64,000 nucleotides of DNA, from positions 96,001-160,000 of IMG/VR virus record IMGVR_UViG_3300032240_001498; one strand, given 5' to 3'. The notes under the pieces are model-generated. The model had not been told where the DNA came from, did no database searches, and worked only from the letters and a program-made list of their open reading frames with translations. The position numbers and the translations under genes are program-made. Positions 9,698 to 29,000 of this stretch are shown one piece after another (the stretch's first letter is position 1; each line of letters begins with the position of its first letter). The stretch comes from a virus. Lineage: Duplodnaviria > Caudoviricetes.

Positions 9698-10003
9698 ATG
9701 GCAAATATTACCTATAGTAAAGCAAGTCCTTATTACAACACTCCTTTAAAAGGCAATCATCTAGACATAATGAGCGTTCGAGATATTCCTGCACTTAAAG
9801 ATGATGTCTTGTTTACAGTAACATCGCAGTATAAACATCGCCCAGACCTGTTGGCGTTTGACATATATCAGAATGAACAATTATGGTGGGTATTTGCCAT
9901 GCGTAATAAAGATGTTGTTCGAGATCCAGTGTATGATATGATACCTGGCATTAAAATTTTTATTCCACAACTTTCAACAATCAATAAAGCACTGGGATTA
10001 TAA
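9698..10003 (+). CDS. Baseplate wedge protein, gp53/LysM-like
   Basis: 101 aa; YKHRPDLLAFDIYQNEQLWWVFAMRN motif typical of gp53-like proteins. Confidence 0.75.
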   Translation: MANITYSKASPYYNTPLKGNHLDIMSVRDIPALKDDVLFTVTSQYKHRPDLLAFDIYQNEQLWWVFAMRNKDVVRDPVYDMIPGIKIFIPQLSTINKALGL

Positions 10004-10004
10004 A

Positions 10005-13000
10005 ATGGCGGACACGTTTTATTTAAACACCGGTAGTACATTTGCGTCAGTGGGTGCAACTAACCCACTGAATAATTATAGTTCGTACAACTATGTGTTT
10101 ACTCTTGCGGCGCTAACTCAAGACGAGTTTAACAGTACTTCTTATCTTGCAAAATCTCCTCAGTTAGAACATGTGATATTCAAAACTTCGGGCAAGGGTA
10201 CAAAGGGGATTACTGATAAAGAATTATTTAACTACAATAGTGTGCCTACTGCAAGCGGAGACGCCGATGCACAGGATGGTGGATTCTACGGTACCAAGAT
10301 ATCTAAAAACGATGAATTGAAACAATTGGTAGATGAATTCAATAAAAATGGCACAGGTAGATTTGATCTATTTGTAGAAAGTCTTGAGATGAACGGTCCT
10401 TGGAAATTAACAGAAGGCGCTGTTGTAACACAGATTCAGATGACGGTAATAGAACCTCTTAGTATGAATGGGTTTCTCGAGTCGTTGCGAGTAAATTGCC
10501 TAGCCGCAGGATATGAATCTCATGTCGGAGTACCGCTATGCTTAAAGATAGAATTCTGGGGGTGGAACGATACTACCGGCAAAGCTGAAAAAGTACCAAG
10601 GTCTGAAAGATACTGGACAGTTGGATTAAACAATGTTCAAATTACTTCTGATGAGCGCGGCACCAGCTACAGATGCGGATTTGTCAATATGAATGCAAAC
10701 GTGCTAGGCATGGATGCAGACGTTCCGGTGACCTTAAAGATGAAAGGCAAAAAAATTGGAGATATGCTCACGAGCTTGTTAAAAGAAGTAGAAGATGCCA
10801 AAAAGAAAGGCAATGATTCCGAAGGGGCAAAAGTCTTCAACTCATACGAAATCAAATTTGAACCAGTAAAAGCACCCGACGGATCATCAGAAACTTTTAC
10901 AATAGAAGATAAAGAAATTAATGATTTCCTAAGAGCAAACAATATGTTTGAATATGCGGCGCCTACTGATAAAACAAAGAAAAACAATTATAAATTTGTA
11001 GATGATAAAGTTACTGCTGTTAAGTATGACCCAGCAGGCGGAACAATTTCTGTTAGATCAGGAACTAAGATTTTTGATATTATAGATGCTGTTATTAGAG
11101 ATAGCGCATATACTAAAGATTTTATTGACAATAAAGACAAATGGAAAGACAAGTACAAAGGAAAAGTTCCATGGTATAGGATTCATGTCACGACTAAAGT
11201 AAAAGACAAAGTAAATCCCAAAGAAGAGCGCCCTGCATATACAATTACCTATACAGTTAGAGCCTATTGGATACATTATTCACGGTTACCTGAGGAATTT
11301 GGATCTTGGGATCCCGAGGGCATACGAAAAACTCTATCTAGAACATATAACTATATCTACACTGGAAAAAATGTTGACCTATTAGATTTTAGAATTAGTT
11401 TTAATTCCTTATATTTGCAAGAGCGCCCCTACAAGTTAGGTGTGCAAGATAGGTCGGCGACTTCGCTAGGCGCTTCTCCTAGCAACACGGTGCAAGTGAA
11501 AGCTGGTGACCAAGAGAAGAAAAATCCCAATCTACAGGTTAACACAGCACCGGCTATTGCAGGCAGTACTAACAAAGGCGGCTTGGACGGAAAGCCAATT
11601 CAAATATCACCATACCTTCAACTGGCCCAAGCCATTCAGAACCAGTTGCTTGACAATAATGAGATGCAGGGAATGACCTGTAAAATTATTGGCGATCCGT
11701 ATTATCTAGTCACTGGTGGTATGAGTAACGTAGAATATGAGCTCGAGAACGAAACGCAAACCAAGGGAGGAGAAGCTCCGTGGTTAGACGGAGAAATCTA
11801 TATTAGTATCGATTTTAAAAACCCCAGAGATTATCGCGCAGATGGGTTTATGGATTTTGGCGGAGAAACTATAGACCATTTCAGCGGAATATTTGGAGTA
11901 CGATCAATAGACCATCATTTTAGAGATGGTGAATTCACACAAACATTGAACCTGTGGAGATTAGCAGGACAGCAACCTTCTAAGAAAGTAACACCTTCGA
12001 TACCTTTTAAAGCGACGCCAGAACCCGGCCAACAACAAACAAAAGATTCTGCTCCTGCGTCAGTTAACAAGTACGGTGCTAAGAAAGCAGTTGCTGACAT
12101 AAACAAAATTTTAAATCCTCAAATTCCTAGCCTTGGAGCGATTGGATTTATGAATTCTCTAAATGGGCTCTACAACAGGGCAACAAATACCTTACAATCT
12201 TCAGTTGCAAGATTAGATGCCGCCGCAGCCGAAACACTGGGAGCGGTACAGGGATTACTTGCTCCTGTACAAACACTTGCTACGGTTGGTATGCAAATCG
12301 GAGGACTTGTTGCGGTGGCAGATGCACTATTAAACAATCCGGGCGCCCCGGCAGTTGGCCAAAGCCTGACAGGATATAATCCCTATACCAACGGAATACC
12401 TTTGCAAACAACTACGATTCCTGCACCAAGTAGTAACGCACAAAATCAAGCTAATCAGTCTGCTCAGGCAAATATTATTTCTAGCTTTGTTCAAGATACT
12501 AATAATCTTTACACGTTGGAAACAAATTATAAAAACAATGTGATTACCTCAGATGGTAAAAATTATATTACAAATCCATCGTCTCCTTCTAATTTAAACA
12601 ATGTTGGACAAAAGACTATTGCCGCATTAAATGGAATACCGACTGATCCTACGGCAATTGCCGCACAATTAGGAATCGACCCTGCACAGTTTTCTGGATT
12701 GTCAGCAGATCAACAAACATCACTATTGTCAAGACTACAAAAAGTATTTGCAACAGTTCCGTTAGATGCGAATATTCAAGGATTCCAAGCACTGGGTCTA
12801 AGTTTAAAAAATATCACAGGCGCCGCAATTCCAAAACTACCTGCATTACAGGCATTAACAACAGCACCAATAGCTAATGTTAGTCAATATGATTTACAAA
12901 AAATTCTAGCCAGCGGCGGTAATCCAGCAAACTTACCGGGAGCAACTTCTTTTGCATCTGTTGCCGCGGTACTGGCATTGTTTGGCGGATCTCGAGGGCA

Positions 13001-13277
13001 ATCCGGAGGAACAAGCGGCGGTAACCCATTAGTTGTGCAACAACAAATCGACAAGTTCAGTAGTGCCAGTGCATTAAACAATGCAAGTTTAAATACTGCT
13101 GGGCTACAACCGGCGGTGCAAGGATTAGGATCAGTTGAGTCTAACCAAGCCAATGCAGTCCAGACTGTACAGGGATTTGGCGGATATTATGTACAAGCAA
13201 ATACGGCAAATAGTTTATACGGTACACAAAGAACATTAAGTCCGTTAGATAAACTCATGTTAACAAAACAAAGCTAA
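10005..13277 (+). CDS. Baseplate hub protein (gp27-like) with long low-complexity C-terminal extension
   Basis: 1090 aa between gp53-like and gp5-like genes; KIIGDPYYL and FSGIFGVRSIDHHFRDGEFTQTLNL hub motifs; the last ~400 aa are rich in A/Q/N/G/L. Confidence 0.6.
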   Translation: MADTFYLNTGSTFASVGATNPLNNYSSYNYVFTLAALTQDEFNSTSYLAKSPQLEHVIFKTSGKGTKGITDKELFNYNSVPTASGDADAQDGGFYGTKISKNDELKQLVDEFNKNGTGRFDLFVESLEMNGPWKLTEGAVVTQIQMTVIEPLSMNGFLESLRVNCLAAGYESHVGVPLCLKIEFWGWNDTTGKAEKVPRSERYWTVGLNNVQITSDERGTSYRCGFVNMNANVLGMDADVPVTLKMKGKKIGDMLTSLLKEVEDAKKKGNDSEGAKVFNSYEIKFEPVKAPDGSSETFTIEDKEINDFLRANNMFEYAAPTDKTKKNNYKFVDDKVTAVKYDPAGGTISVRSGTKIFDIIDAVIRDSAYTKDFIDNKDKWKDKYKGKVPWYRIHVTTKVKDKVNPKEERPAYTITYTVRAYWIHYSRLPEEFGSWDPEGIRKTLSRTYNYIYTGKNVDLLDFRISFNSLYLQERPYKLGVQDRSATSLGASPSNTVQVKAGDQEKKNPNLQVNTAPAIAGSTNKGGLDGKPIQISPYLQLAQAIQNQLLDNNEMQGMTCKIIGDPYYLVTGGMSNVEYELENETQTKGGEAPWLDGEIYISIDFKNPRDYRADGFMDFGGETIDHFSGIFGVRSIDHHFRDGEFTQTLNLWRLAGQQPSKKVTPSIPFKATPEPGQQQTKDSAPASVNKYGAKKAVADINKILNPQIPSLGAIGFMNSLNGLYNRATNTLQSSVARLDAAAAETLGAVQGLLAPVQTLATVGMQIGGLVAVADALLNNPGAPAVGQSLTGYNPYTNGIPLQTTTIPAPSSNAQNQANQSAQANIISSFVQDTNNLYTLETNYKNNVITSDGKNYITNPSSPSNLNNVGQKTIAALNGIPTDPTAIAAQLGIDPAQFSGLSADQQTSLLSRLQKVFATVPLDANIQGFQALGLSLKNITGAAIPKLPALQALTTAPIANVSQYDLQKILASGGNPANLPGATSFASVAAVLALFGGSRGQSGGTSGGNPLVVQQQIDKFSSASALNNASLNTAGLQPAVQGLGSVESNQANAVQTVQGFGGYYVQANTANSLYGTQRTLSPLDKLMLTKQS

Positions 13278-13282
13278 AATAA

Positions 13283-16021
13283 ATGGCAATTAATTCAACA
13301 GAATCAGCACATAAGAGTCTTGAAGGCCAAGTCATGGATGCCGGCCCCTACCTAGCTAGGGTAGTAAACCATCTTGATTCTACCATAATGGGCGGATTAG
13401 AAGTATTGTTATATGAAGGCGGAACTGCCGATTCAAATCTACAGTCTAACGTAATTCCTGTTTATTATATGAGTCCGTTCTGGGGAACCACCTCGGTTTC
13501 GTTTGAAGGAAATAATTCAGCTAATTTTCAAGATGTACAAAAATCTTATGGCATGTGGATGGTACCACCTGATATCGGATCCTGTGTTATGGTTATTTTT
13601 GTAAGGGGAATGTCAAATGCTGGCTATTGGATTGGGTGCGTTCCTGATACATATCAAAATCATATGGTACCTGGTATTGCCGCTTCTCGTAATGTTGCAC
13701 TAACAACTGAACAAGAAAGAAAATACGGAACTACGTATCTTCCAGTAGGCGAATTTTTAAAACGCAGTAGGGATTTATCGGGAGCCGAAGTTGACAAATT
13801 TACAAAACCTGTTCATCCATTTGCAGATAGATTATTAGAACAAGGACTTATAGTAGACGACATACGGGGTGTAACATCTAGTTCGGCTAGAAGAGAATAT
13901 CCGTCAAGTGTGTTTGGTATTAGCACACCGGGTCCTATTGATACATCTCAAGGAGCTAAAACAGGTCAAATTGGTTTTGGCGAAAAAGCTACAGCATACG
14001 TAAGCAGGTTAGGAGGTTCTCAGTTTGTTATGGACGACGGAGATAAACAAGGACTTAACGAGCTTGTTAGAATACGTACTCGCACTGGTCATCAAATTCT
14101 TTTACATAACAGCAGTGATTTGATTTACATTGCTAATGCCAAAGGTACTGCATGGATAGAGCTAACCAGTCAAGGTAAGATTGATGCATACTCTGCTGAT
14201 TCTATATCACTTCATGCGGAGGGCGATTTTAATCTACGTGCTGATCGAGACTTTAATATTGAAGCAGGAAGAAACGTAAAAATTGCTGGAGGTGATGATG
14301 TACAACTAGAAGCTGGCGCAAATTTATATGCTAAGGCAGTTAAAACTATAAAAACCAATGCAAGCCAAGAAATACATTTTAGTGCCGGAACTGATTTATA
14401 CATTGGTGCGCAGTCCGATGTAAACATCACCGCCGCAAGTGATAACTTATACCTTACTTCGGGCGGCTCTGCTCACATCAAATCAACAGGTGATATGTTT
14501 ATAGGATCGACGCTTTCTATGAATATCAACGGAGGTTCGACTGCGTTATTGGGTAGCAAAGGTGCTGTTAGTTTTAATTCTAACGCTACAATATCTATTG
14601 CCGCCAAAAATACTGTTAATATACTAGGCGAAGGATCTTTGAATTTAACATCTCCAGATCTTAATATGAATAGCAATCCGGCTACAGCTGGACCAGCGCC
14701 TGGTTCTCCTAATTCTGCACAGCCTCCTACTACTCCTGATCCTCTTCAAAGATATAATCTACCTAACATAAAAATAGGTGCGTGGAGTGATGGAGAACAT
14801 TACAGAGCATCTGATCTTGTAACAATTATGACTCGAGTTCCAACGCATGAGCCATGGCCACAACACGAAAGTGTAAATCCTGATAGATTCAGTTATGATA
14901 AGACTGACTCTGAAAACACCAGTACAAATACATATTCAACAGTTAATATCAAGTATAACAAAGCACCGACTGATACTCCTCCTAAGCCAACTGGAAATAT
15001 TGAAGAAGATAACATTGCGGCATTCTTATGGACTATCCGTGTTGCAGAAGGAACGGCTTCTAAAAATGGATATGTAACTCAATATACTGGAGCTGTGTTT
15101 GATGTAGATAATCCAGGCCTGCCAAACGGAGTTACTGCCCCATCTCGATTCCAATACTATAATAGACAGAAGTTAGGAGTCTACGGAAGTAACTCATATA
15201 GCCAATCTGGAGGAAAGATTGTAGTTGTTGGGGATAGTCTAGCAGTCGGCACCGGCTCTCAAATCGCAGGAGCCACGGTAGTTGCTAAAGAAGGTATCAG
15301 TAGTAGTGCTATTTTAAAGAGTGTGACAGGAAATACAAGTGTCCAAGGCGCAGACCTAGCTATTATTTCTGCAGGTGCCAACGACGGTGCAGGTATATCA
15401 GGCACAAATCCAAATTCTTCATTAACAATCTCTAATATAAAAGCAATTAAAGCGGCTCTTAATGCTAAAAAATATGTATGGATACTGCCATATAACAGAA
15501 GTGTAGCAACTGATATAATAGCCGCAGTAGGCAATGATGATTGTGTTGATTTAAAACAAACAGTTAATGTGAGTAGTGACAATCTTCATCCGTCAAGTTA
15601 TGCACCAGTGGCCGCCTCAGCCATTTCCAAAGGCGGCATAACCAGCGGCGGTAGTGCAGTTACTTGGAATAACAACAGCTACAAATTTAAAGACCATCCC
15701 CGAATTATTCTTGGACCTCCTAACGGTCTTAGGTCGTCTGCCGCAGGCGCCTATCAGTTTATGCCAGATACGTGGGACGATTGTAAGCGTGCCTGTAAGT
15801 TGCCAGACTTTAGCCCAGCCAGTCAAGATAAGGGAGCAATATATCTTATTCAACAAAAGAATGCACTTGAAGATGTTAAAGCAGGTAGATTTGCCAGAGC
15901 GGCTGAAAAAGTTAAAAAAGTGTGGGCAAGTTTCAAAGGTGCAGGTTACGGACAGAGAGAAATTGAAGTTAGTGTATTAGCAACCTATTATAAAGGTGCC
16001 GGCGGAACCATAGTTTCATAA
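13283..16021 (+). CDS. Baseplate spike, gp5/VgrG-like, with C-terminal lambda-type lytic transglycosylase containing a nested SGNH hydrolase
   Basis: OB-fold region (ARVVNHLD...YMSPFWG...GMWMVPPDIG), RIRTRTGHQILLH, beta-helix repeats; then FLWTIRVAEGT ... FKDHPR ... SAAGAYQF ... WASFKGAGYGQ, with GDSL/GAND/DNLH motifs in between. Confidence 0.8.
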   Translation: MAINSTESAHKSLEGQVMDAGPYLARVVNHLDSTIMGGLEVLLYEGGTADSNLQSNVIPVYYMSPFWGTTSVSFEGNNSANFQDVQKSYGMWMVPPDIGSCVMVIFVRGMSNAGYWIGCVPDTYQNHMVPGIAASRNVALTTEQERKYGTTYLPVGEFLKRSRDLSGAEVDKFTKPVHPFADRLLEQGLIVDDIRGVTSSSARREYPSSVFGISTPGPIDTSQGAKTGQIGFGEKATAYVSRLGGSQFVMDDGDKQGLNELVRIRTRTGHQILLHNSSDLIYIANAKGTAWIELTSQGKIDAYSADSISLHAEGDFNLRADRDFNIEAGRNVKIAGGDDVQLEAGANLYAKAVKTIKTNASQEIHFSAGTDLYIGAQSDVNITAASDNLYLTSGGSAHIKSTGDMFIGSTLSMNINGGSTALLGSKGAVSFNSNATISIAAKNTVNILGEGSLNLTSPDLNMNSNPATAGPAPGSPNSAQPPTTPDPLQRYNLPNIKIGAWSDGEHYRASDLVTIMTRVPTHEPWPQHESVNPDRFSYDKTDSENTSTNTYSTVNIKYNKAPTDTPPKPTGNIEEDNIAAFLWTIRVAEGTASKNGYVTQYTGAVFDVDNPGLPNGVTAPSRFQYYNRQKLGVYGSNSYSQSGGKIVVVGDSLAVGTGSQIAGATVVAKEGISSSAILKSVTGNTSVQGADLAIISAGANDGAGISGTNPNSSLTISNIKAIKAALNAKKYVWILPYNRSVATDIIAAVGNDDCVDLKQTVNVSSDNLHPSSYAPVAASAISKGGITSGGSAVTWNNNSYKFKDHPRIILGPPNGLRSSAAGAYQFMPDTWDDCKRACKLPDFSPASQDKGAIYLIQQKNALEDVKAGRFARAAEKVKKVWASFKGAGYGQREIEVSVLATYYKGAGGTIVS

Positions 16022-16036: not shown

Positions 16037-16474
16037 ATGCCATATAAAAATATCATAATCCAACCTGCTAATTACAGCGAACAAAATCGTCAGCAAACGT
16101 CTCAGTTTTATGTAGGATTTTCAACACAAGATCCCTTAGCAAGAACTGTAACAATGTACGATTTTGATGTTGTAAAACAGGACTTGTTGAATTATTTTAA
16201 CACACGCCAGGGCGAGCGTGTGATGAATCCTGGTTGGGGAACTGTTATTTGGGACAAGCTATATGATCCTTTTACCGAAGAAGTTAGATCTGCAATTGAA
16301 GAAGATATTAAAAAAATCATAGCATCAGACCCTAGAGTTAATATTACCTCGGTTGTTATTACAGAAGCAGATTTTGGCCTCGTTTTAGAAATTACCCTTA
16401 CCTTTGTAGCCACGAGTCAAGTTGATGTAATGCGTTTGAACTTTGACAAACAGGCTGGTTTATCCCTACAATAA
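16037..16474 (+). CDS. gp25: Baseplate wedge subunit gp25-like
   Basis: QDLLNYFNTRQGERVMNPGWGTVIWDKLYDP...IIASDPRV. Confidence 0.9.
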   Translation: MPYKNIIIQPANYSEQNRQQTSQFYVGFSTQDPLARTVTMYDFDVVKQDLLNYFNTRQGERVMNPGWGTVIWDKLYDPFTEEVRSAIEEDIKKIIASDPRVNITSVVITEADFGLVLEITLTFVATSQVDVMRLNFDKQAGLSLQ

Positions 16475-16526: not shown

Positions 16527-19500
16527 ATGATACCAGCAACCAACTCAAAACTACTTGTCGCAGAAGATTGGACAAAAATATACCAATCTTTTAACAATGC
16601 AGACTTTAAATCTTACGATTACGATACACTTCGTAGATCAGCAGTTCAGTATCTAAGAGCAAATTATCCTGAAGATTTCAACGACTACATTGAGAGCAGT
16701 GAGTTTATTGCCCTAGTAGATCTTATCTCCTATCTTGGACAAAACCTAAGTTTCCGTATCGACCTAAATGCCCGTGAGAATTTTTTAGAAACAGCACAAC
16801 GCCGCGACAGTATTCTACGTTTAGCACAGCTGATCAGCTATAATGCACAAAGAAATGTACCAGCCAATGGTATGTTAAAAATCACAGCAATGTCTACTAC
16901 AGACAGCGTTATTGACAACAACGGCACTAATCTAGCCAATCAAATTATCAGTTGGAACGATCCTTCTAACAACAACTGGTATCAGCAATGGATCCTAGTT
17001 ATGAACTCTGCAATGCCTGCAGGTATCAATTTTGGAACCCCGACGCTATCAGATACGATTGAAGGAATCCTAACTGATCAATATAGAATTAACACTGACC
17101 AAACAGGTGTTCCTATATACACGTTTAACAAATCCATTAGCGGTATTGCTATGGGGTTTGAAATAGTAAGTTCAACATTTAAAGATCAAAATTACATTTA
17201 CGAAGAACCTCCACTGCCTGGCAGACAAACAGGCGTAATTTGGAGAAATGATAATCAAGGTGCAGGATCAAAGAACACTGGTTTCTTCATGCACTTCAAA
17301 CAGGGAACACTGGCCAGCTCTGCTTTTTCAGTTGATAATCCTGTACCAAATGAAATCATTGGCATTAATGCAACTGATATTAATAATAGCGATGTGTGGT
17401 TATGGCAGTTGAATGCTGACGGTAGCTATAACAAAGAATGGACTAAGGTTGATGCAACAGTTGGCAACAATGTTATCTATAATAGTTTAAACTTAAACAC
17501 ACGAACATTATATGCAATAACTTCTAGAATTAACGATCAAATTGATTTAAACTTTGCTGATGGTAACTTTGGAGATTTGCCTAAGGGCGGATTTGTCCTA
17601 TACTACAGACAAAGCAACGGCCTATCATATACAATTTCACCCACTGACATAAACGGTTTGTCAGTTAGAATTCCCTACATAAACAAAGCCGGCCAATCAC
17701 ACTCTTTAACACTAACACTAAGTTTACAGTATTCTGTTTACAATAGTTCGCCTGCTGAAACAAACGCATCTATCAAACAAAAAGCTCCTCAAAATTATTA
17801 TCTACAGAATAGAATGATAACAGGAGAAGATTATAATATTGGTCCGGTAACAGTTGCATCTGATGTTATCAAAGTTAAGAGTATCAACAGACAGAGTTCT
17901 GGAATCAGTAAGTACTTTGATTTGAATGATGTTACGGGTAGATATAGTCAAACGGATATATATGCCCAAGACGGCATAATTTATAAAGAAGATCAACAGT
18001 TAAGTTTTACATTTACCTTTGAGAATCGTAATCAAGCATTTGGTGTTTTAAAATCAAAAATTGAACCATTGCTCGAAAATCCAACAACTCGAAACTTCTA
18101 CTTTGACAAATATCCAAGACCCGATTTATCAAACATCAACATCAGTTGGGAACTTGCACAAACAGAATCTGGACAAGTCCGTGGGTATTTTAAAAACACC
18201 TATGATCTTACACCACAGCAGGTTGGTTATTTTAGCAGTAGTAATGCACAGTATATCACAGCAGGCGCCCTAATAAAATTTCAACCGCCCACAGGATATT
18301 TTTATAAACCATCTGGTCAACTGACTCAACAGGCGGATGCTACTACACGTACCTATACGTGGGCTAGAGTATCGTTAGTAACAGGTGACGGATCAAACAG
18401 CGGCAACGGATTGTTAAACGACGGTACAGGTCCTATTATTTTAACAGGGTTTGTAGCAAAAGATTCTATTGCAGTTGAGATAATTCCTCAACTGGTTACA
18501 AATTTACCATTTGCACTAGAGAATCAAATTGTAAATCAAATTGTAGGAAAACTTAATTTTGGATTAAGTTTTGACCGTTTGGCAAGAGCTTGGACTATTG
18601 TCACAGATACCAATGTTGATTTACAAACAAAGTTTAGTTTGATATATCAGGGTGACACCACTAATCAAAACGTCGATGCGTCTTGGATTATTGCGTTTCA
18701 GTGGACAGGATCTTCTTATACTGTTTCTTACAGAAAAACAAATTACATATTTGAAAGTGCAGAGCAGACATCTTTCTTTATAGATGATTATAAAAACAAC
18801 TTTGATTATATTTCTAATACCACTATCAAAGATAAAATTTCTGTACTAGGTATTAATACAATTCCTAATCTTGGAAATACCTGGAGACATGGCTCGGCCA
18901 CTCCGCAAACATCTTTAGGATCTAACGGCGACTTTTATCTTAACACACTTAACGATGTTGTGAGTAGAAAGATAAACGGAGTTTGGGTAGTAATACCTGC
19001 AGGGCAAACTATCAACGAATTAGGAAAAGATCATTCGTGGCAAGTTGATGAGGCTGTGGTTGAAAGCGACGGCTATGTAGAACCTAAAAAAGTATTAGTC
19101 AGTTTTTATGATTCAAAAAATAATGGACAAATAGATGATCCTGATAGTTTTTCAATTATCACAGACAGTCAAAATCCTTTGGTGCAAACAGGCTTCCTTG
19201 GAAACTTTGTTTACTTTGAAACAATGCCCGACGGTAGCCGATACCAGTTGGCAAATGCTTCTAAGTTTATAGCTTACCCTGATGAGAGTTATGTAACTCC
19301 AGTTGACGGTCAGCTGTACTATTTTTATTCAGCAGATGTAATCAAACAATATTCTGCGGCAAACCTAGAATATCTATTGCAACCGCAATATTTTGCTCGT
19401 GCTGGCCGCAGTGATTTAAAATTCCATTATATTCACAACAGCGGGGAAGAAAAGCGTATTGATCCTGCCAAGTCAAATATTATTGACATTTATATGTTAA

Positions 19501-20024
19501 CAAGAGGATATGATACTGCCTATAGAATGTGGTTATTAGATACTACTCAAATGGAACCTATGCCTCCAACAACCGCGGCTCTCGAGGATACGTATAGCCA
19601 GTATCTTGAACCTATAAAAAGTATATCCGATACTATTATCTACCATCCTGCAAAATACAAAGTATTATTTGGCACAGCGGCACAATTAAATTTACAGGCT
19701 ACATTCAGGGCCGTAAAAAATCCTAATATTCCCGTTAGTGACAACAATCTTAAAACAAGAATAATTGCGGCAATTAATGATTTCTTTGCACTTGATAATT
19801 GGAATTTTGGCGACTCATTTAATTTTAGTGAACTATCTACATACATCATGAATACAATGACTCCAGACATTATTAACTTTATTATAGTTTCTAAAAACGG
19901 ATCATCTTTTGGCAACCTATTTGAAGTTGCCTGTCAGAGTAATGAAATATTTGTAAGCGGTGCTACGGTTTCTGACGTAGAAATTATTTCAGCATTAACA
20001 CCTTCAAAACTATCTATTGTATAA
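16527..20024 (+). CDS. Baseplate wedge subunit gp6-like (baseplate J-like)
   Basis: ADFKSYDYDTL, NDYIESSEF, ENFLETAQRRDSILRLA, ETNASIKQKAP...QNRMITGEDY; follows gp25. Confidence 0.85.
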   Translation: MIPATNSKLLVAEDWTKIYQSFNNADFKSYDYDTLRRSAVQYLRANYPEDFNDYIESSEFIALVDLISYLGQNLSFRIDLNARENFLETAQRRDSILRLAQLISYNAQRNVPANGMLKITAMSTTDSVIDNNGTNLANQIISWNDPSNNNWYQQWILVMNSAMPAGINFGTPTLSDTIEGILTDQYRINTDQTGVPIYTFNKSISGIAMGFEIVSSTFKDQNYIYEEPPLPGRQTGVIWRNDNQGAGSKNTGFFMHFKQGTLASSAFSVDNPVPNEIIGINATDINNSDVWLWQLNADGSYNKEWTKVDATVGNNVIYNSLNLNTRTLYAITSRINDQIDLNFADGNFGDLPKGGFVLYYRQSNGLSYTISPTDINGLSVRIPYINKAGQSHSLTLTLSLQYSVYNSSPAETNASIKQKAPQNYYLQNRMITGEDYNIGPVTVASDVIKVKSINRQSSGISKYFDLNDVTGRYSQTDIYAQDGIIYKEDQQLSFTFTFENRNQAFGVLKSKIEPLLENPTTRNFYFDKYPRPDLSNINISWELAQTESGQVRGYFKNTYDLTPQQVGYFSSSNAQYITAGALIKFQPPTGYFYKPSGQLTQQADATTRTYTWARVSLVTGDGSNSGNGLLNDGTGPIILTGFVAKDSIAVEIIPQLVTNLPFALENQIVNQIVGKLNFGLSFDRLARAWTIVTDTNVDLQTKFSLIYQGDTTNQNVDASWIIAFQWTGSSYTVSYRKTNYIFESAEQTSFFIDDYKNNFDYISNTTIKDKISVLGINTIPNLGNTWRHGSATPQTSLGSNGDFYLNTLNDVVSRKINGVWVVIPAGQTINELGKDHSWQVDEAVVESDGYVEPKKVLVSFYDSKNNGQIDDPDSFSIITDSQNPLVQTGFLGNFVYFETMPDGSRYQLANASKFIAYPDESYVTPVDGQLYYFYSADVIKQYSAANLEYLLQPQYFARAGRSDLKFHYIHNSGEEKRIDPAKSNIIDIYMLTRGYDTAYRMWLLDTTQMEPMPPTTAALEDTYSQYLEPIKSISDTIIYHPAKYKVLFGTAAQLNLQATFRAVKNPNIPVSDNNLKTRIIAAINDFFALDNWNFGDSFNFSELSTYIMNTMTPDIINFIIVSKNGSSFGNLFEVACQSNEIFVSGATVSDVEIISALTPSKLSIV

Positions 20025-20035
20025 GAATTTAAAAA

Positions 20036-23000
20036 ATGGCAAAAAACACACGCAATGAATTAACTGATGTTTATAATTTAAACGATCCTAGTCACACAAG
20101 AAAGACCAGCGATCTACTACCTGCCTATCTTCAAACAGATAAAAACATAAAATTTTTATCAAGTACACTAGATAGATTAGTTGAAGTTCCCCGTGTCGAG
20201 AGAATCAGCGGATATGTAGGAAGCAAGATAACATCAACCTACAATCCATTAAAAGATCAGTATATTAGTAGTGTATCAAAATTAACTCAGGATTATCAGC
20301 TAGAACCAGGATTGGTTGTAAGAGACGAAAACAATGAAATAACTCATGCAGTAAGCTACGATGATCTAATAAATCAGTTGTCATATTACGGTGCAACAAC
20401 AAATAATCATGACAAAATTTTACGACCAACTACGTATTCTTATGATCCTAAGATAGACATCGATAAGTTTGTAAATTATACACAATACTATTGGTTAGAA
20501 GGCGGCCCGGATCCAATAGAAATCACAGGCATGCAAAATGCTACGGTCAGTGAGTATACTGTCACTGACGGTGGCGCAACTATTGATACTTTTACAACTG
20601 TTGATCTTAAAACAATCAGTAGTGCAAATAATGCCACAGTTTTTATTTTTACACCAAACGGTTTAACTCCGGATCCAACTGTAACTTTTTACAGAGGTAT
20701 GACCTATGTATTGAATGTTACTTCAGTACATAATCTTTATATAAAGACTGCTCTGTCTTACGGTCAAGCAGATCAATATACAGGTGTAATTAACAACGGT
20801 TCAAAAGACGGACAGATTATTATTACTGTAGACGATCTAACACCAGATGTATTATATTATGTAGCAGGCGACGACACCCGTGTTGCAGGAAAGATTGTTG
20901 TCAAGTCCATGCTCGAGAATACAGAATTAAATGTCGAGACAGATCTTATAGGAAAGAAAGTATATCGTTCTGGAAATAATGTTGTCTTGTCGAACGGAAT
21001 GGTAATCTATTTTCCAGATAGTGTATTTCCAGAATCTTATGCTAGAAAGCGTTGGATAGTTGAAGGTGTAGGTACTGCAATCACATTGATAGATTTTGAC
21101 AGTTTACAAAATAACGTAGATTTATCAAATAATCTTGACACTAATTTTGATGCACAACGGTTTGATGAATACCCGTTTGATGATTTTAGAAACGCACCAA
21201 TAACTCCGGACTATGTTACAATCAATCGTGCCAGTCTTGATAGAAATCCGTGGTCTCGGTATAACCGTTGGTTCCACGCCGGAATAATCGAAGCATCTGC
21301 TAAGGCCAACGGAGTCCCTTCAGTATACCCTCAAGATAAACGTGCCCGCCGACCTATTATTGAATTTCAGCCAAATATCAAACTATTCAACTTTGGAGTG
21401 ATTTCAAAGCCTAATGCCCATTTAATGGACACAGTAACAACTGACACGTTTTTTGCAGTTGAAGGAAGCGCAGGATATTATGTCGACGGCGTACTACTAG
21501 AGGAAGGCTACCGTGTTATTTTTAATGCTGACCTCGATCCATTAGTAAGAGGAAAGACATTTGTAGTTAAAATAGAAACAGTTAATGGTAATCAAATCAT
21601 TAACCTGATTGAAGATCTAACATCTACTCCATCAGTTGGCGATGCTGTTGTTACTGCTGAAGGATCTATTTACAGAGGATCTAGTTGGTGGTGGGACGGC
21701 ACCAGTTGGATTTTGGCTCAACAGAAAACAGGATTAAACCAAGCCCCTGTGTTTGACCTATTCGATCCTAATGGAATAAGTTACAGCGACACTACTCATT
21801 ATCCCGGAAATTTTTCTGGAACTAGACTATTTGGATATACAGACGGTACTATATACGATCCAGTATTAAACCTTAATTTAAAATATCTCAATGTGGCAAA
21901 CATTGGCGATTTTCTTTTTACAAATTATTTTAATACAGATACATTTTCTGTAGCATCGGCAACAGGAACAACCATAGTCCCTGTGTCTTCTGGATTTTTA
22001 AAAATATCAGATAAATTTGCAAATGCCTGGGTTAGATCAGCTACTATTCAAATTCCTATTTTGCAGTATCAAGTAATTGAAACAATAACAAACTCTATAG
22101 AAGTCAACGCTATTGATTATGCAGGTTGGCAAACTGACCTAACAATAGATGTTTTTGTTAACGACGTCAAAAAAATAAAATTTGTTGATTACGAAGTAGT
22201 TCCTGAAAATCAATATTTGATTGTAGTATTCAAGGCTAACTTGGCTATTTCTGATAGGGTCTTATTCAAACTCTACACCACAGCAGTTCCTAATGCAAAC
22301 GGAACCTACGAGCCTAGTTTAAGTTTGACAAACAATCCGTTGAATGGCCCTATTACACAGTTAACGTTGGCAGAATTCACTAACCAACTGCAATCTATTT
22401 CTGAAAAAGTGCCGTTCTTTACAGGATCCGCACTAGGGTCTAATAATTTACGTGACTTAGGAGATACTGCACAATATGGTAAACGGTTAATCTCTCATGT
22501 TAGTCCGTTATCATTTGCCCACTTTTTTATTGGCTTAAAAGAACACAGCATCATTAATGCAGTAAAAAAAGTATCAGACGATTATCAAAATTTTAAATCT
22601 ACTTTCTTAAAGGCAGTCGATGAGATAACAAATGCAATAACTCCTAGAGATGCAGTTGACCAAATCCTATCTACAATTAATGCAGGTAAGGACATAATGT
22701 TTCCATACGGATATTCCGATATGGTGCCATACGGGCAGGATTATGTATTAAGAACTTATACTGTAACAGATTTAAGAATTACAACATACGCTCTTCCTTC
22801 AATTGTTAATCTAGTAGACGTTAATGATAACGCTGTAATAATTTACATCAACGGTTCTCAGGCGATGTTAAACATTGACTATACTATTCCTTCAACAGAT
22901 CCTAGTGTAACGTTTGTTAAAAAATTAAACCTTGGCGACCTTATTGAAATAAGATCCTATGCAACTACCCAAGGATGTTATGTTCCTAATACTCCATCAA

Positions 23001-26000
23001 AATTAGGCCTGTATCCTAGCTTTAGTCCATCAAGGTATTTTGATACAACTTATACAACACCGTCATTTGTAATTGAAGGCCATGACGGAAGTATCATGCA
23101 GGCCTACAATGACTATAGAGATGATATTATTTTAGAATTAGAAAAAAGAATTTTCAATAATATAAAATCAAACTCAGTATACTCTCCTAGTCTAGTTGAT
23201 ATCAATTCTGTATTGCCAGGAGCCTATAGAAATAAAGACTTTAGCTATTCTGAAATTTTTAAAATACTAAGTTCAGAGTTTTTAAAATGGACAGGAGCCA
23301 ACGGAGTTGATTATAGAAAAAATATAATTGCGGTAAACGAACCTCGAACTTGGAATTATAGAACTTCTGCAACTAATCCTACAAACAATTTACAACTTCC
23401 TGGTCATTGGAGAGGAATTTTTAAATATTTTTATGATACCGATCGTCCACATACTCATGCATGGGAAATGTTGGGATTCAGCGAACAGCCAGATTGGTGG
23501 AGATCACAATACGGTCCTGCACCTTTTACATCGGGTAATACACTCCTATGGACAGACTTATCATACGGTATTATTCGCCAAGGCCCTAGAGCCGGTGTTG
23601 ATTTAAATTATGCTAGACCCAATTTATTAGACATATTGCCAGTCACTGAAAACGGAACTCTATTAGATCCGCAAAGTATTGGCTTGGCTCAAAACGTTAT
23701 TTTTAATCAAACAAATGCAGAATGGATCTTTGGAGATCACGGACCTGCTGAAACTGCATGGAGAAGATCAAGCTCTTGGCCATTTGCTGTTCAGATATTA
23801 TTGGCCCTTACTAAACCTGCTGATTACGCCAGCATACTATTTGATACCAGTAGAATTCAACTATCAGTTGCAGGACAAACAGTATACGGACTAAACGAAC
23901 AACTATTGAAACTATCGGACCTTATCTTATACAGAGATACGATTGACGGAAAACTGCAATATGCGGCAGGATATAGTGTAATGCTTATTGAAGCAGGTCT
24001 TCAAAGAAATTTAAATTATATTGACAAACTAAAAGCAGATCTTGCAGGTGTTGATTATAATTTAATTTACAAAGCAGAAGGATTTTTAGATAAAGATAAA
24101 CTGGCAGTACGAATTGATTCAGTAGATCCGTCCAGCGTTAATCCCGGAGTGTTGTTACCTGCAGAAGATTACGCAATTCAATTGAATCAAAGTAATCCTA
24201 TTTTATCATTATCGATTAGTGGCATTATCGTTCAAAAGAGTCAAGGCGCCTACATTGTAAAAGGGTATGATTCTCTCAAACCTTATTTTACCATATTGAA
24301 TCCTATACATAGTTTTCAAGATACCAAAGTTACCCTCGGCGGCACTTCTGAGAATTTTGTAACATGGACTGAAAATAAATTTTATCAAACAGGTCAACTG
24401 GTATCGTATCAAAACAACTATTATAGAACAAAACTAAGTCATACTGCAACTACAACATTTAATTCTAGTAACTTTCAACAGTTAGCTGACTTACCAACAG
24501 TGGGTGGCGTTACTGTTGCAAAAGCAAGACAATATGAAACTGCGACTACTACTGTTTCATATGGTTCTACTCTGTTAACAATACAAGATGTCTACGACTT
24601 TTTAATGGGGTATGGCAAATATCTAGAAAGACAGGGATTCGTATTTGACTATTTTCAAACTGAGCTTAATTCAATACTTGACTGGGATTTTGCAACCAAA
24701 GAGTTCTTATTCTGGACAACACAAAATTGGATAGATGGATCAATAATCGTATTAAGCCCCTTTGCTCAACAAGTTAAATTTAAAACTGTTGATAGTTTAG
24801 GGAATCAGACCCTATACGGAATAGTCGATGATCTAACAGATCCTTACTATCAATACAACCTATTAACCGCAGACGGCACAGTATTTCCGTCCCAGCAATT
24901 TACTCTATCGAGAGAAGATAACCAATTTGTAATTGAGTCTTTGCTACCTAACACTGGTTTCTACTTTGCTCAAGTTAACATTATACAAAAACAACATGCC
25001 GTTATTTTTAATAATTTTAGTATGTTCAATGATATTGTCTACGACAAGGAAACAGGTTATCGTCAACAACGTATTAAACTAACAGGATTTAGAACCGCAG
25101 AATGGAATGGCGGGTTAACAACTCCTGGATTCATCTACGACGAAGCAGTCGTGGCTGACTGGCAACAGTATACAGATTACGCACCGGGGGAAGTTGTGCG
25201 ATATTCTGGAAAATACTATTCGGCCATCATGAAAGTTGATGGTTCTGCGGCCTTTGATTTTACTGGGTGGTGGGGATTAGGATTAAAACCTACTCCATCG
25301 TTGTTGCCAAACTTTGAATATAAGATCACTCAATTTGAAGATTTTTATAGTTTAGACATAGATAACTTTGATGTTGGTCAGCAACGTATGGCCCAGCATC
25401 TTACTGGATACACTCCGAGAATATACTTAGATAATATTTTTGATGATAGAATTGCACAGTATAAATTTTATCAAGGGTACATTAAAGAAAAAGGTACAGC
25501 AAACTCTGTTACTAAATTGGCCAAGGCCAGTCTTAATAACTTGCAAGGTCAGGTTGAATTTTTAGAAACCTGGGCTTTTAGAATTGGAGCATTTGGCGGT
25601 TACAATTCATACAAAGAATTGCAGATTAATTTAAGCGATCAGAAATTTGTTCAGAACCCTCAAATAATACAATTTACAGGATTCTCTAGCGTCAACAATG
25701 ATTTTATATATCGTGTACCGCAGAGCGATGTACTAATTGTACCAGACGACTATGATTATAACAAAGTATTTCCAACATTAGATACTAATTTTTCAGAATA
25801 TATTCCTGAAATACAAACAGCGGGATATGTTCGTGTTGACGATGTAACCGCTACAGCATACAATGTTAATAGTATTTTAGACATTGGTGATCCAAACTTA
25901 ATTGCAGAAGGCAGTACTTTCTGGTTAGGCTTTAGTCCTACCGGTAGTTGGGACGTCTTACGATATACAAGACAGAATGTACAGATTATCGATGTTACGG

Positions 26001-29000
26001 TTACTAATCCTGGTATTGGAATTCAATTTACTACTGCACAATCGCATGGATTATCAGTTGGGGAAATAGTCGCTGTTTCAAGATTTATTCCAGATCTTAA
26101 TAAGGTATATCTTATTACTTCTATTGAATCTAATACACAATTTACTGTTTCTAGCACGTTAACTGCGGTGCCATACTCGTCGGATGTATATATTGGAATT
26201 GTTTCTAAATTTGTTTCAGTTCGCTTTGGTAGCTTTGACGATCTAGCTTCCTTGCCGCGATTGACAACAACCAAGTATGGCGATAAAATTTGGGTTGATA
26301 ATGATGGTACTAAGAAATGGGCAGTTTACGAAAAGATTAACAATTACTCAGCTACTACTTATTCGGATGCAGTTGACAATACTAATCAACTGTATGGATT
26401 TTCGTTCAGCACAAATGAGTCAACTTCAACCTATGTAGTTAGTGCCCCTGGATTTTATGATAACAACTACGGCTACGGCAAAATATTTGTCTATGATAAA
26501 ACATCTACTAGAGATGTTAAAACAAATACAATATTCACTTACTCGTTGAAAGACTCTAGTCACGACTATTATCTAAGTACGGTATCTCCTGAGTTTGGTT
26601 ACAGTTTAAAATATGATGCAACCAATAATATAATTTTTGCAGGGGCCCCTGCAACCAGTAGAGTTCGTGGTGATGCAACAGGCACCGGTGATCTAAGGTT
26701 TGTAAATGATGCAAACAATGTAACGCCACTTGATAGAACTGGTATGATTAAAATTACTGCTATTAATAGAATATTAAATCAGCCAGTAACCTTAGCGGCT
26801 TTAACTACGCCCAACCCTACTTCAAATGGTCGATATGGCAACTCAATCGTAGCAAACTCTTCAGCAACTAACAAACAATTCCTAGTTGGAGCGCCTGGGG
26901 AAGGAATTGGTCACGTTTATAATTATACTATGACCATGGGGCAGTATAATACAAGTACTGTAACAGTTTCTGCGTTAACCGCATTATCAAATGCGAATCT
27001 TCCAACAGGAAGTTTCTTTGGTCAAAGTATTGCGGCCAGCGACGATCTTAGCATAGTGGCAGTTGGCGCACCAGGTGCATATACCGATACTGGTGTTGTA
27101 AGAATCTTTACTAAAAATTCTAACAATACATTTACAGCACTACCAGCTGATATTACAAAAGACACAACCGGCCCTGATGGTAAAGGCGGACTGAAAGGTT
27201 TGATTACATCAGGCGACTTGCTTGGTAACAAACTGGTAATGAGTAAAGACGGTCAATATCTGTTTATTAGTAGCCCAGGAACACAGTACGGATTGTATCA
27301 AGGTATGGTTAGTGTTTGGAAATGGAACGGATCTAAATTTGCATGGTTACAAAATCTAACACAGCCAAATAGAAATTCTAATACAATTTTTGGCTTTGAT
27401 ATTTCTGTTGACGACACCAAAGAAACGTTAGTTATTTCAAGTATCGGTACATTAGAATTACAAAATATTACCTTTGACACCTACATGGGATTATTGCCAA
27501 ATGCAACAGCACTATATGGTACAAAATATGTTAAAGACCCTGCAACAGATGTTCGACATGTAAAAACAACATTTGACAATCAATCAACGCGATTCTATAG
27601 TAATATAGAAGGTGCAGGTTCTGTTAGTGTGTTTAATAGATATCAAACATATTTCTCTTATGCACAGGACATACAATCAAATGCGATTACCACAGGTAGT
27701 GACTTTGGTTATTCAATTACACAATTAGGAGGAAACATTTATGTTGGTGCTCCTACTTCTGATACCTTAGCCGGAAAAAATAACGGACAAACATTTATAT
27801 TCCAAAAAATAGATAGATCTGTAAACAGCTGGAGTTTACTACGGTATGAAGAACCGTTAGTTGATCCTGCAGTTATCAAACGTCTCATGATAATCGATGC
27901 AGATAAAGACGTTATTACACAGTATCTTGAGATATTTGATCCTGTAAAAGGATATGTTCCGGGCGCAGCCGAGCAGGAATTGTCGTATAAAACAATGACT
28001 GACCCTGCCACCTACACTCTAGGAACCGGAAAAATATCAGTTGATACAAATGCCAATTGGACAGATACCCATGTTGGTGAGTTATGGTGGGATACCGGAG
28101 CTGTAAAATACTATTGGTATGAACAAGGTGATTTAGAGTATAGAAAAAATCAGTGGGGAACAACGTTTCCAGGGAGTGCTATTCAGGTATATGAATGGGT
28201 TAGCTCTGATTTATTGCCTAGCGAATGGGCGGCCGTGGCCGATACTAACAATGGATTGCTACGAGGAATAAGCGGTCAGCCTAAGTATCCTGACAATAGT
28301 GTACTATCAGTAAAGCAGGTTTATAACCAAGTTACCAACACATTTAGTAATGTATATTATTATTGGGTTAGAAACAAAACCACATTACCGGCCACTAGAA
28401 ATAGAAGAATCAATGCAATAACAGTTGCAGGATTAATTGCTGATCCTAAAAATCAATTAGTAGAACACGCTACAATTTTAAGACAAGATGCATTAGCGTT
28501 GGTTAATATTAAAGGATTGATCAATAACAATTCAACTAATTTACATATTAATTTTGATAGATTAACAAACTCAACCCCACGTCATACAGAATGGTTGCTG
28601 TTACAAGAAGGAGATCCTTATAGTAGTCCTTCTGTAATGTTAGAGCAAAAACTAATAGACAGTTTGGTTGGCTATGATAAGATTGGTCAACCTGTTCCAG
28701 ATCCTTCACTTTCAGTACAGCAACGATACGGCATTAATGTAAGACCCCGTCAAACAATGTTTGCTGATAGAATAGAAGCATTGAGAACGGTGTTAGAATG
28801 GACTAATACTGTTTTATTAGAAAATAGAATTATAAGTTTAAAATCAATTCCTAACCTAAAGATGATGGAACAAATTCCATCTTCTGAAGAAAATGCTTGG
28901 GATCAAATTGTCGAAACAAACTATCAACTGGACCTCATTGAAACTAAGGCATTAAGACAAGCGCAGTTAGTATGTACTATCAATAGTAATGGCGGAATTG

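Follow-up and report, generated by a model that had tools for sequence, protein, structure and literature searches.

Lysozymes carried by a spike or a hub are well known, for example T4 gp5 and the 'evolved' VgrG spikes, the latter of which have peptidoglycan-degrading effectors at their C-termini. In the gp27-gp5 complex of phage T4 a hub, an OB fold and a beta-helix spike bring a muramidase-type domain to the periplasm. The same modules, next to gp25-like and gp6-like genes, were found in an uncultured virus of the IMG/VR database (record IMGVR_UViG_3300032240_001498; 200,604 bases, estimated to be about 55% complete), of which bases 96001-160000 were analyzed. This stretch of 64,000 nucleotides is called the window, and positions are counted from its first base. 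The gene under study encodes a spike protein of 912 amino acids (P0002), the layout of which also resembles that of the evolved VgrG spikes. In contrast to T4 gp5, its lysozyme is of the lambda type, follows the beta-helix instead of preceding it, and holds a second catalytic domain inside, which belongs to the SGNH superfamily. With endolysin R of phage lambda (PDB 1AM7 and 3D3D) the lysozyme shares the fold, the order of the motifs, the glutamate in the EGT motif, and 36% identity over the shared parts. However, lambda R is a soluble endolysin, while here the domain is the C-terminus of a virion spike and is interrupted after the first hairpin by 187 extra residues, among them the whole SGNH domain.

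O-acetylation of N-acetylmuramic acid (MurNAc) is a defense of bacteria against host lysozymes and a control on their own lytic transglycosylases. O-acetylation blocks the latter enzymes, which require the C-6 hydroxyl of MurNAc to be free, and the esterase Ape must act first (PMC1199599). The Ape1 proteins of Neisseria (4K3U, 4K7J) and Campylobacter (8GLD) have the same SGNH fold, Ser-His-Asp triad and Gly/Asn oxyanion hole as the inserted domain, for which their role, clearing O-acetyl groups ahead of a lytic transglycosylase, is proposed as well. As described in a preprint, C. jejuni Ape1 consists of two modules, a CBM35 domain beside the SGNH domain (bioRxiv 10.1101/2021.09.23.461501); in contrast, the insert comprises no more than about 140 residues and has no CBM35-type domain. 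For optimal function, Ape1 of Neisseria depends on the transglycosylase LtgA, which has been described as its binding partner (PMC7083599). This is a partnership of two proteins, whereas in P0002 the link is covalent and nested, and the activity is predicted.

SGNH domains are also found in other phage virions. Tal of the Staphylococcus aureus phages 80alpha (gp59) and phi11 (Gp44) is a gp27-like hub with an SGNH/GDSL domain that is presumed to act on the wall (PMC7048315; PMC5380687). These phages are siphoviruses of a Gram-positive host, however, and their SGNH domain, the activity of which is likewise predicted, is a plain C-terminal domain of about 240 residues that is not nested. The SGNH tailspikes of Shigella phage Moo19 (gp82, 9D81) and Acinetobacter phage Aristophanes (gp41) are virion-borne esterases directed at an envelope glycan, as is proposed here, but they are peripheral receptor-binding spikes that act on O-antigen or capsule, whereas the domain of P0002 lies within the part of the central spike that cuts peptidoglycan. 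Two catalytic domains in one virion lysin are already known (PMC5380687). A description of a phage peptidoglycan de-O-acetylase was not found in the literature, but only a speculation concerning Proteus phage 309 (PMC9229222). What is new is the domain-in-domain topology inside a lambda-type transglycosylase, and, judged from sequence searches, a compact SGNH family to which no PHROG family corresponds and which hardly occurs in 50,697 GenBank phage records. Also new is a case, albeit circumstantial, for a phage peptidoglycan de-O-acetylase.

An SGNH domain nested in a lambda-type transglycosylase

The C-terminal 336 residues of P0002 were aligned with lambda endolysin R and were found to be collinear with it along both proteins. 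The helix with Glu589, the GY..F hairpin and the motifs DHPR, AAGxYQ, DFSPxSQD, WASxPGAGYGQ and GGT follow each other in the lambda order. Glu589 corresponds to lambda Glu19 and is invariant in the alignments A1 and A5; the latter has 35 invariant columns, covers the N-terminal helix and the hairpin, and includes lambda E19, G20 and T21 among its invariant positions. The part behind the insert matched residues 44-153 of 1am7/3d3d with an E-value of 3e-19 (phmmer against PDB). An AlphaFold2 model of residues 565-912, which was based on an alignment of 27 sequences, had a mean predicted local distance difference test score (pLDDT) of 84.7, and a Foldseek search with this model retrieved 3d3d as the top match (E 1.4e-7, root mean square deviation (rmsd) 1.2 over 108 columns). 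The uninterrupted relative P0027 was 40% identical to lambda residues 31-153 (E 1e-31), and relatives without the insert can be aligned with lambda R end to end, while the extra material of P0002 falls between lambda F42/T43 and D44. By these sequence comparisons the resemblance to lambda R goes far beyond chance, and the C-terminal effector of the spike is predicted, from alignment and model, to be a lambda-R-type (GH104-like) lytic transglycosylase.

All four SGNH blocks are present in the interrupting segment, namely GDSL at residues 650-653, Gly671, GAND at residues 698-701, and DNLH at residues 766-769. The predicted active site residues are Ser652 (nucleotide 15236), the block II glycine Gly671 (15293), Asn700 (15380), Asp766 (15578) and His769 (15587). 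When the insert alone was used as query, homologues were retrieved with E-values from 1e-23 to 7e-51, and when it was modelled alone with 27 homologues (AlphaFold2), a predicted template modelling score (pTM) of 0.86 was obtained. An exhaustive structural comparison (VIA) aligned 145 residues with the GDSL esterase 7e16 (Z 14.4, rmsd 2.8), and the top 50 matches were all SGNH-type or GDSL-like entries. Foldseek yielded 46 matches to the insert model at E<=1e-3, and these were exclusively SGNH proteins.

An earlier reading of the window, made from the sequence only, had claimed that an intact SGNH domain is nested in a lambda-type lytic transglycosylase on the spike. The alignment with lambda R, both folds and the catalytic blocks bear this out. 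All motifs were located where that sequence-only reading had placed them: FLWTIRVAEGT at residues 581-591, with Glu589 at nucleotide 15047, GAVF at 15089-15100, GDSL at 15230-15241, GAND at 15374-15385, DNLH at 15578-15589 and FKDHPR at 15686-15703, followed by SAAGAYQF, DFSPASQD, WASFKGAGYGQ and AGGTIV. The expected two folded domains were recovered by structure prediction, with pLDDT values above 90 for both lysozyme pieces, which adopt the 3d3d fold, and of 90.6 for the insert, which adopts the SGNH fold.

A domain inserted into an exposed loop can be tolerated without having any catalytic role, and the insert might be such a structural or binding passenger. Nothing specific speaks for this, and the conservation of the catalytic residues makes it barely credible. 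Among the 27 homologues, at identities of 29-65%, the serine and the asparagine are present in 27/27 sequences, the histidine in 26/26, the aspartate in 24/26 and the block II glycine in 24/27, so that the triad and the oxyanion residues have been kept in diverged proteins. In addition, the ratios of nonsynonymous to synonymous substitution rates (dN/dS) between P0002 and P0003, its relative with the same nested layout, were about 0.27 for the insert and about 0.22 for the lysozyme part; these values are rough, because dS is saturated (above 1.3). Thus, the sequences indicate that the insert is under functional constraint, i.e., purifying selection, like the surrounding lysozyme.

Distribution and origin of the nested form

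In comparison to lambda R, P0002 contains 195 extra residues (15101-15685), which the sequence-only reading had taken for one insert. The extra length was confirmed, but not its origin in a single insertion, because two layers could be distinguished: an older loop of about 38 residues (607-644), which is shared with sister spikes devoid of the esterase, and the SGNH insertion proper of 149 residues. The distant spikes P0027, P0010 and P0013 have none or about 10 residues at the insertion site. The nearest sisters (P0004-P0009, loci L040-L049) share the loop of about 38 residues and lack the SGNH domain. In the ten IMG/VR loci L040-L049 the match spans 186 amino acids where P0001 has 336, with a gap of 149 residues opposite the insert. 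These ten loci lack exactly the SGNH segment that P0002 and P0003 carry.

Among the spike relatives compared, the further 149 residues were found only in P0002 and P0003. The latter has the same nested layout at about 60% identity and was assembled twice independently (contigs from ENA and JGI), both times with syntenic baseplate genes, which argues that the nested form is no assembly artefact. In a tree of the spike body the forks inside the clade of eight members were unsupported, so the tree does not settle whether P0002 and P0003 are sisters, and their distribution fits one insertion as well as transfer or loss. The loop behind the first hairpin of the lambda-type lysozyme looks like a hot spot of insertion, with 0, about 10, about 38 or about 187 extra residues depending on the spike lineage. 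Two further candidates for a nested form were rejected: P0091, a protein of 341 amino acids, consists of two tandem lambda-type lysozyme domains, and P0178 has an unrelated N-terminal extension.

A tblastn search of the 50,697 GenBank phage records with the insert gave one weak match, to an uncultured phage (MW202640), and with the module of P0075 as query one further GenBank phage record was found; cultured phages thus show practically no trace of the module. Only three proteins were retrieved when the insert region was used in a word-based search. In its own genome, as far as it is covered by the record of about 55% completeness, the SGNH module is present in a single copy and a match to Phage_lysozyme2 was not found. 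Among viral folds, the insert was matched best by a small GDSL protein from Providencia phage PS3. ORF3 of Proteus phage 309 (L101:1663-2295; hhalign probability 92%, E 6e-7) is remotely homologous to the family. Proteins of this ORF3 type are small, are encoded in the early region, contain the G-D-S-L motif, and are conserved in Novosibovirus and related Providencia phages. Some Proteus mirabilis strains O-acetylate their peptidoglycan, and a link to the GDSL protein of phage 309 was a speculation of the respective authors (PMC9229222).

Proposed function of the nested domain

On balance, and with modest confidence, sequence comparisons and the modelled fold favor that the insert is a peptidoglycan de-O-acetylase. 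By analogy, the most likely substrate would be an O-acetylated wall glycan, and peptidoglycan foremost. According to the proposed mechanism, a compact SGNH serine esterase of 149 residues was inserted into the loop behind the catalytic helix and the first hairpin, which was already enlarged in sister phages. Upon infection, tail contraction would drive the spike through the outer membrane of a host with a presumably O-acetylated wall. The esterase, which presumably acts first and on this substrate, would strip 6-O-acetyl groups from MurNAc, and the transglycosylase would attack via the freed C6 hydroxyl, resulting in a 1,6-anhydro product and in a hole in the O-acetylated peptidoglycan. Since the transglycosylase must attack through the same C6 hydroxyl, prior deacetylation would let it cut O-acetylated peptidoglycan. 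While the nested architecture that the sequence-only reading had described was confirmed, its built-in de-O-acetylase became the best-supported reading, for which the support is partial and indirect: the fusions of the module to peptidoglycan-cutting or -binding domains, a bacterial gene cluster of the O-acetylation type, the residue in front of the catalytic asparagine, and the established chemistry of lytic transglycosylases and Ape outlined above, of whose pairing the nested protein would be a covalent version. That the phage thereby counters a host defense, as had also been put forward, can only be inferred.

The first of these lines of evidence is the company of the SGNH module in other proteins. 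In P0058, P0059, P0075, P0145 and P0011 its partner is Phage_lysozyme2, either by itself or together with PG_binding_1 or LysM. In other spikes it occurs with a T4-type lysozyme (PF00959), either between the OB fold and the beta-helix (L018-L021) or in the middle of the protein (L025), or it is situated at the C-terminus of the spike (L022/L023). Further partners are an M15-like peptidase (L027, a weak match) and a SleB-type Hydrolase_2 domain (L030). Judged by these domain matches, puncturing spikes have acquired the module at four or more different sites in addition to the nested one. The SGNH fold is also present in bacterial entries of AlphaFold DB clusters whose names refer to an SLT transglycosylase, a LysM or a phage tail lysozyme domain. 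The wall-binding domains PG_binding_1 and LysM in the same proteins also make it rather improbable that the module is a lipid or lipoprotein esterase (GDSL lipase or lysophospholipase), by which the outer or the inner membrane would be weakened during passage of the spike. Many of the nearest folds are indeed annotated as lipases or acylhydrolases, some spikes have the module without a recognizable lysozyme (L022), and for the SGNH domain of Tal, the hub protein in S. aureus phage 80alpha, an activity has yet to be established (PMC7048315). However, the larger GDSL matches (195-234 residues) have lid elements, which are absent from the minimal insert of about 140 residues.

The second line of evidence for a peptidoglycan de-O-acetylase comes from bacteria. 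A search of the genome of Limnohabitans sp. T6-20 with the insert-family profile A4 gave one match, a LysM and SGNH protein of 356 amino acids (E 7.5e-37). The LysM-SGNH proteins are the nearest cellular homologues of the insert, with 30-35% identity and with the motif variants GDSIAVG, GxND and D..HP kept. In comparison to the insert they are free-standing bacterial proteins with a LysM domain, and their function is likewise predicted; an obvious signal peptide was not seen. The Limnohabitans gene adjoins three genes that are transcribed in the opposite direction (L105:1-5540). The cluster encodes an MBOAT protein (PF03062, E 8e-27) beside a weakly glucosaminidase-like gene, and a DHHW/AlgX-type SGNH protein that is homologous to Bacillus cereus PatB1 (PDB 5v8d, E 1.7e-15). 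The gene order is kept in seven Comamonadaceae-type genomes, including Limnohabitans and Polaromonas, down to 43-47% identity. A protein of 321 amino acids without any match is also encoded in the cluster, the order of which was noted in L104, L106, L107, L108, L109 and L112 as in L105. In 301 sampled genomes of the order that contains Limnohabitans, the module was found only in the starting genome. The combination of an MBOAT protein, an SGNH transferase and a separate SGNH protein mirrors the patA-patB-ape layout, with the LysM-SGNH protein apparently in the position of the esterase. The Comamonadaceae cluster is a candidate system for O-acetylation and de-O-acetylation of peptidoglycan.

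The third line of evidence is a single residue. The block III asparagine of OatA follows a Val or Ile, and when this residue is replaced by Ala or Gly, esterase activity rises and transfer drops (PMC6174289). At this position P0002 has Ala, and the 27 sequences contain Ala (6), Thr (8) or Ser (13), and Val or Ile in no case (0/27). By this sequence criterion the residue is esterase-like, unlike that of the OatA transferases. It thus argues against the idea that the domain is an O-acetyltransferase of the OatA-C/PatB type, which would acetylate the wall, e.g., against host autolysins or superinfecting phages. This idea draws on the similarity to S. aureus OatA-C, which is equally compact and was among the best folds (Z 14.2, rmsd 2.5, 133/155 residues), and to PatB. 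Nevertheless, it is very improbable, because the protein has no membrane partner domain as acyl donor, the periplasm is devoid of an activated acetyl donor, Ala, Thr or Ser take the place of the Val/Ile typical of OatA in all 27 sequences (PMC6174289), and an acetylated wall would block the very lysozyme that hosts the domain (PMC1199599). An AT3 or MBOAT partner was not found in the 912 amino acids of P0002, and its neighbors are baseplate genes; this search did not extend to the remainder of the genome, of which about 55% is covered by the record.

Several results weigh against a peptidoglycan de-O-acetylase. First, the module does not resemble Ape1 more than it resembles generic GDSL esterases or the OatA/PatB transferases. 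The VIA Z-scores of the insert were 11.2 for C. jejuni Ape1 (8gld), 14.4 for generic esterases, 14.2 for OatA-C and 12.4 for PatB, and the match of profile A4 to Ape1 of N. meningitidis (4k3u) was weak (E 0.047 over 50 residues). Fold comparison by VIA and Foldseek fails to separate esterases from OatA/PatB transferases. Second, the Pfam GDSL models stayed below their cut-offs for the insert (E 0.017-0.07). Lipase_GDSL_2 reached 16.0 bits (E 0.017) compared to a cut-off of 32.9, the match to DUF459 was weak, and an NCBIfam match or a PHROGs family was not found. Because the A4 profile at the same time reaches solved GDSL acylhydrolases at E-values of 6e-6 to 9e-4, sequence and model suggest a position of the insert outside the existing Pfam families, in a minimal and divergent branch of the SGNH superfamily. 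Third, the linkers between the domains were modelled with low confidence, and the relative orientation of the two active sites in the AlphaFold2 model is therefore unreliable.

Fourth, some fusion partners are unrelated to peptidoglycan, namely superoxide dismutase, GNAT, and giant proteins with amidoligase and deaminase domains. In 13 IMG/VR loci (L003, L004, L005-L008, L010-L015, L017; example L005:3392-4435) an Fe/Mn superoxide dismutase (Sod_Fe_N and Sod_Fe_C) is fused to a C-terminal SGNH module in proteins of 336-347 amino acids, and nothing in the peptidoglycan reading accounts for this pairing. The fusion to GNAT was found in one protein. The giant phage proteins (L009:3155-8438, L016, L002, and P0128 with 2006 amino acids) have the SGNH module on the N-terminal side together with amidoligase and cytidine-deaminase domains, and P0063 (1221 amino acids) combines it with PG_binding_1, PolyA polymerase and NUDIX domains. 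It may be that these giants are multi-enzyme polyproteins that are packaged in the virion or ejected with the DNA.

Fifth, PatB1, the solved relative of the transferase in the Comamonadaceae cluster, is presumably an acetyltransferase of a secondary wall polysaccharide and not of peptidoglycan. This relationship would also fit an SGNH domain that deacetylates another envelope glycan, i.e., O-antigen, capsule or exopolysaccharide, and thereby aids adsorption or passage through the surface layer. The fold matches include the SGNH tailspike 9d81 (Moo19 gp82) and several tail-fibre entries of BFVD, and structural polysaccharide deacetylases have been documented in phages (PMC11058221; PMC5380687). 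However, the domain resides on the central spike within a peptidoglycan-cleaving fold, and not on a peripheral receptor-binding fibre, and the recurrent partners of the module are lysozymes, LysM and PG_binding_1 instead of beta-helix depolymerases. Taken together, another glycan is an unlikely target, and the peptidoglycan de-O-acetylase is retained as the favored interpretation.

The spike gene in its baseplate setting and implications

The positions of the spike gene, its parts and its neighbors are compiled in Table 1. For residues 20-435 of P0002, phrog_13211, 'baseplate hub subunit and tail lysozyme', was matched with an E-value of 2e-46. The match to the beta-helix family DUF2345 was above the cut-off (E 1.6e-9, 38.2 bits), while that to Phage_base_V was weak (15.1 bits). 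A tblastn search revealed 28-36% identity of the N-terminal 450-570 residues to hub proteins of PA5oct-like, Atu_ph07 and Rak2/121Q-like jumbo phages. The gene thus has the hub, OB-fold and beta-helix modules of a gp27/gp5-type hub and spike, with gp25-like and gp6-like genes downstream; in locus L032 the syntenic counterpart of the gp25-like gene carries PF04965 GPW_gp25. The matches to phrog_13211 and DUF2345 and the similarity to jumbo phage hubs therefore identify P0002 as the central cell-puncturing spike of an uncultured jumbo myovirus. Tail-fibre genes come after the gene for the virion protein of 4532 amino acids, and the whole region is a myovirus baseplate block. Four stretches of the latter protein match phrog_10938, 'virion structural protein'. 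In the linker between beta-helix and lysozyme, the motif IMTRVPTHEPW, followed by xxHE, is nearly invariant across all spike relatives, though the surrounding linker is variable; a role as metal-binding apex or as processing site is conceivable.

Table 1. Position of the spike gene, its domains and neighboring genes in the window
Feature	Position	Strand	Residues or size	Basis or remark
Baseplate protein	9698-10003		101 aa	context upstream of spike gene
Structural protein	10005-13277		1090 aa	context upstream of spike gene
Spike gene P0002, single open reading frame	13283..16021	+	912 aa	gp27/gp5-like or VgrG-like baseplate hub and spike with C-terminal lysozyme
Hub, OB-fold and beta-helix body of the spike	13340..14587	+	aa 20-435	phrog_13211, DUF2345, Phage_base_V, tblastn
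Motif IMTRVPTHEPW in Pro-rich linker between beta-helix and lysozyme	14825..14857	+	aa 515-525	near-invariant columns in alignment A1
N-terminal piece of predicted lytic transglycosylase: catalytic helix with Glu589 (15047-15049), GY..F hairpin	15011..15100	+	aa 577-606	alignment with lambda R; pLDDT 92-97
Older loop expansion, common to esterase-free sister spikes	15101..15214	+	aa 607-644	alignment A1, model; low-confidence beta-hairpins, pLDDT 50-68
Inserted compact SGNH domain, predicted esterase	15215..15661	+	aa 645-793, 149 aa	gap in sister loci, fold, conserved catalytic columns
C-terminal piece of predicted lytic transglycosylase	15662..16018	+	aa 794-912	phmmer, Foldseek, phrog_90 endolysin (E 1e-33)
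gp25-like baseplate wedge gene, just downstream of spike gene	16037..16474	+		phrog_261 and phrog_43
Large baseplate wedge subunit	16527..20024	+		phrog_10646 (E 8e-284)
Virion protein, single open reading frame directly after the wedge genes	20036-33634	+	4532 aa	context

The effect of O-acetylation on the entry of phages and on lysis has barely been explored. It is conceivable, at somewhat less than even confidence, that in P0002 a peptidoglycan de-O-acetylase delivered by a virion has been found for the first time, as part of a two-step 'deprotect, then cut' enzyme that arose by domain insertion, and that it is the tip of an unrecognized compact phage SGNH family present in spikes, endolysin-like proteins and multi-enzyme proteins. 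If this is true, it would be a directly testable counter-measure of a phage to a modification of the wall, and a natural single-chain 'esterase plus transglycosylase' design, from which the engineering of lysins against O-acetylated walls could benefit. Through the module family, attention is also drawn to the cluster of MBOAT, PatB1-like and LysM-SGNH genes of abundant freshwater bacteria, possibly a new system of peptidoglycan O-acetylation. If the spike is a de-O-acetylase of this kind, phage entry into freshwater bacteria such as Comamonadaceae would be hindered by wall O-acetylation, a barrier that phages would have overcome several times independently.

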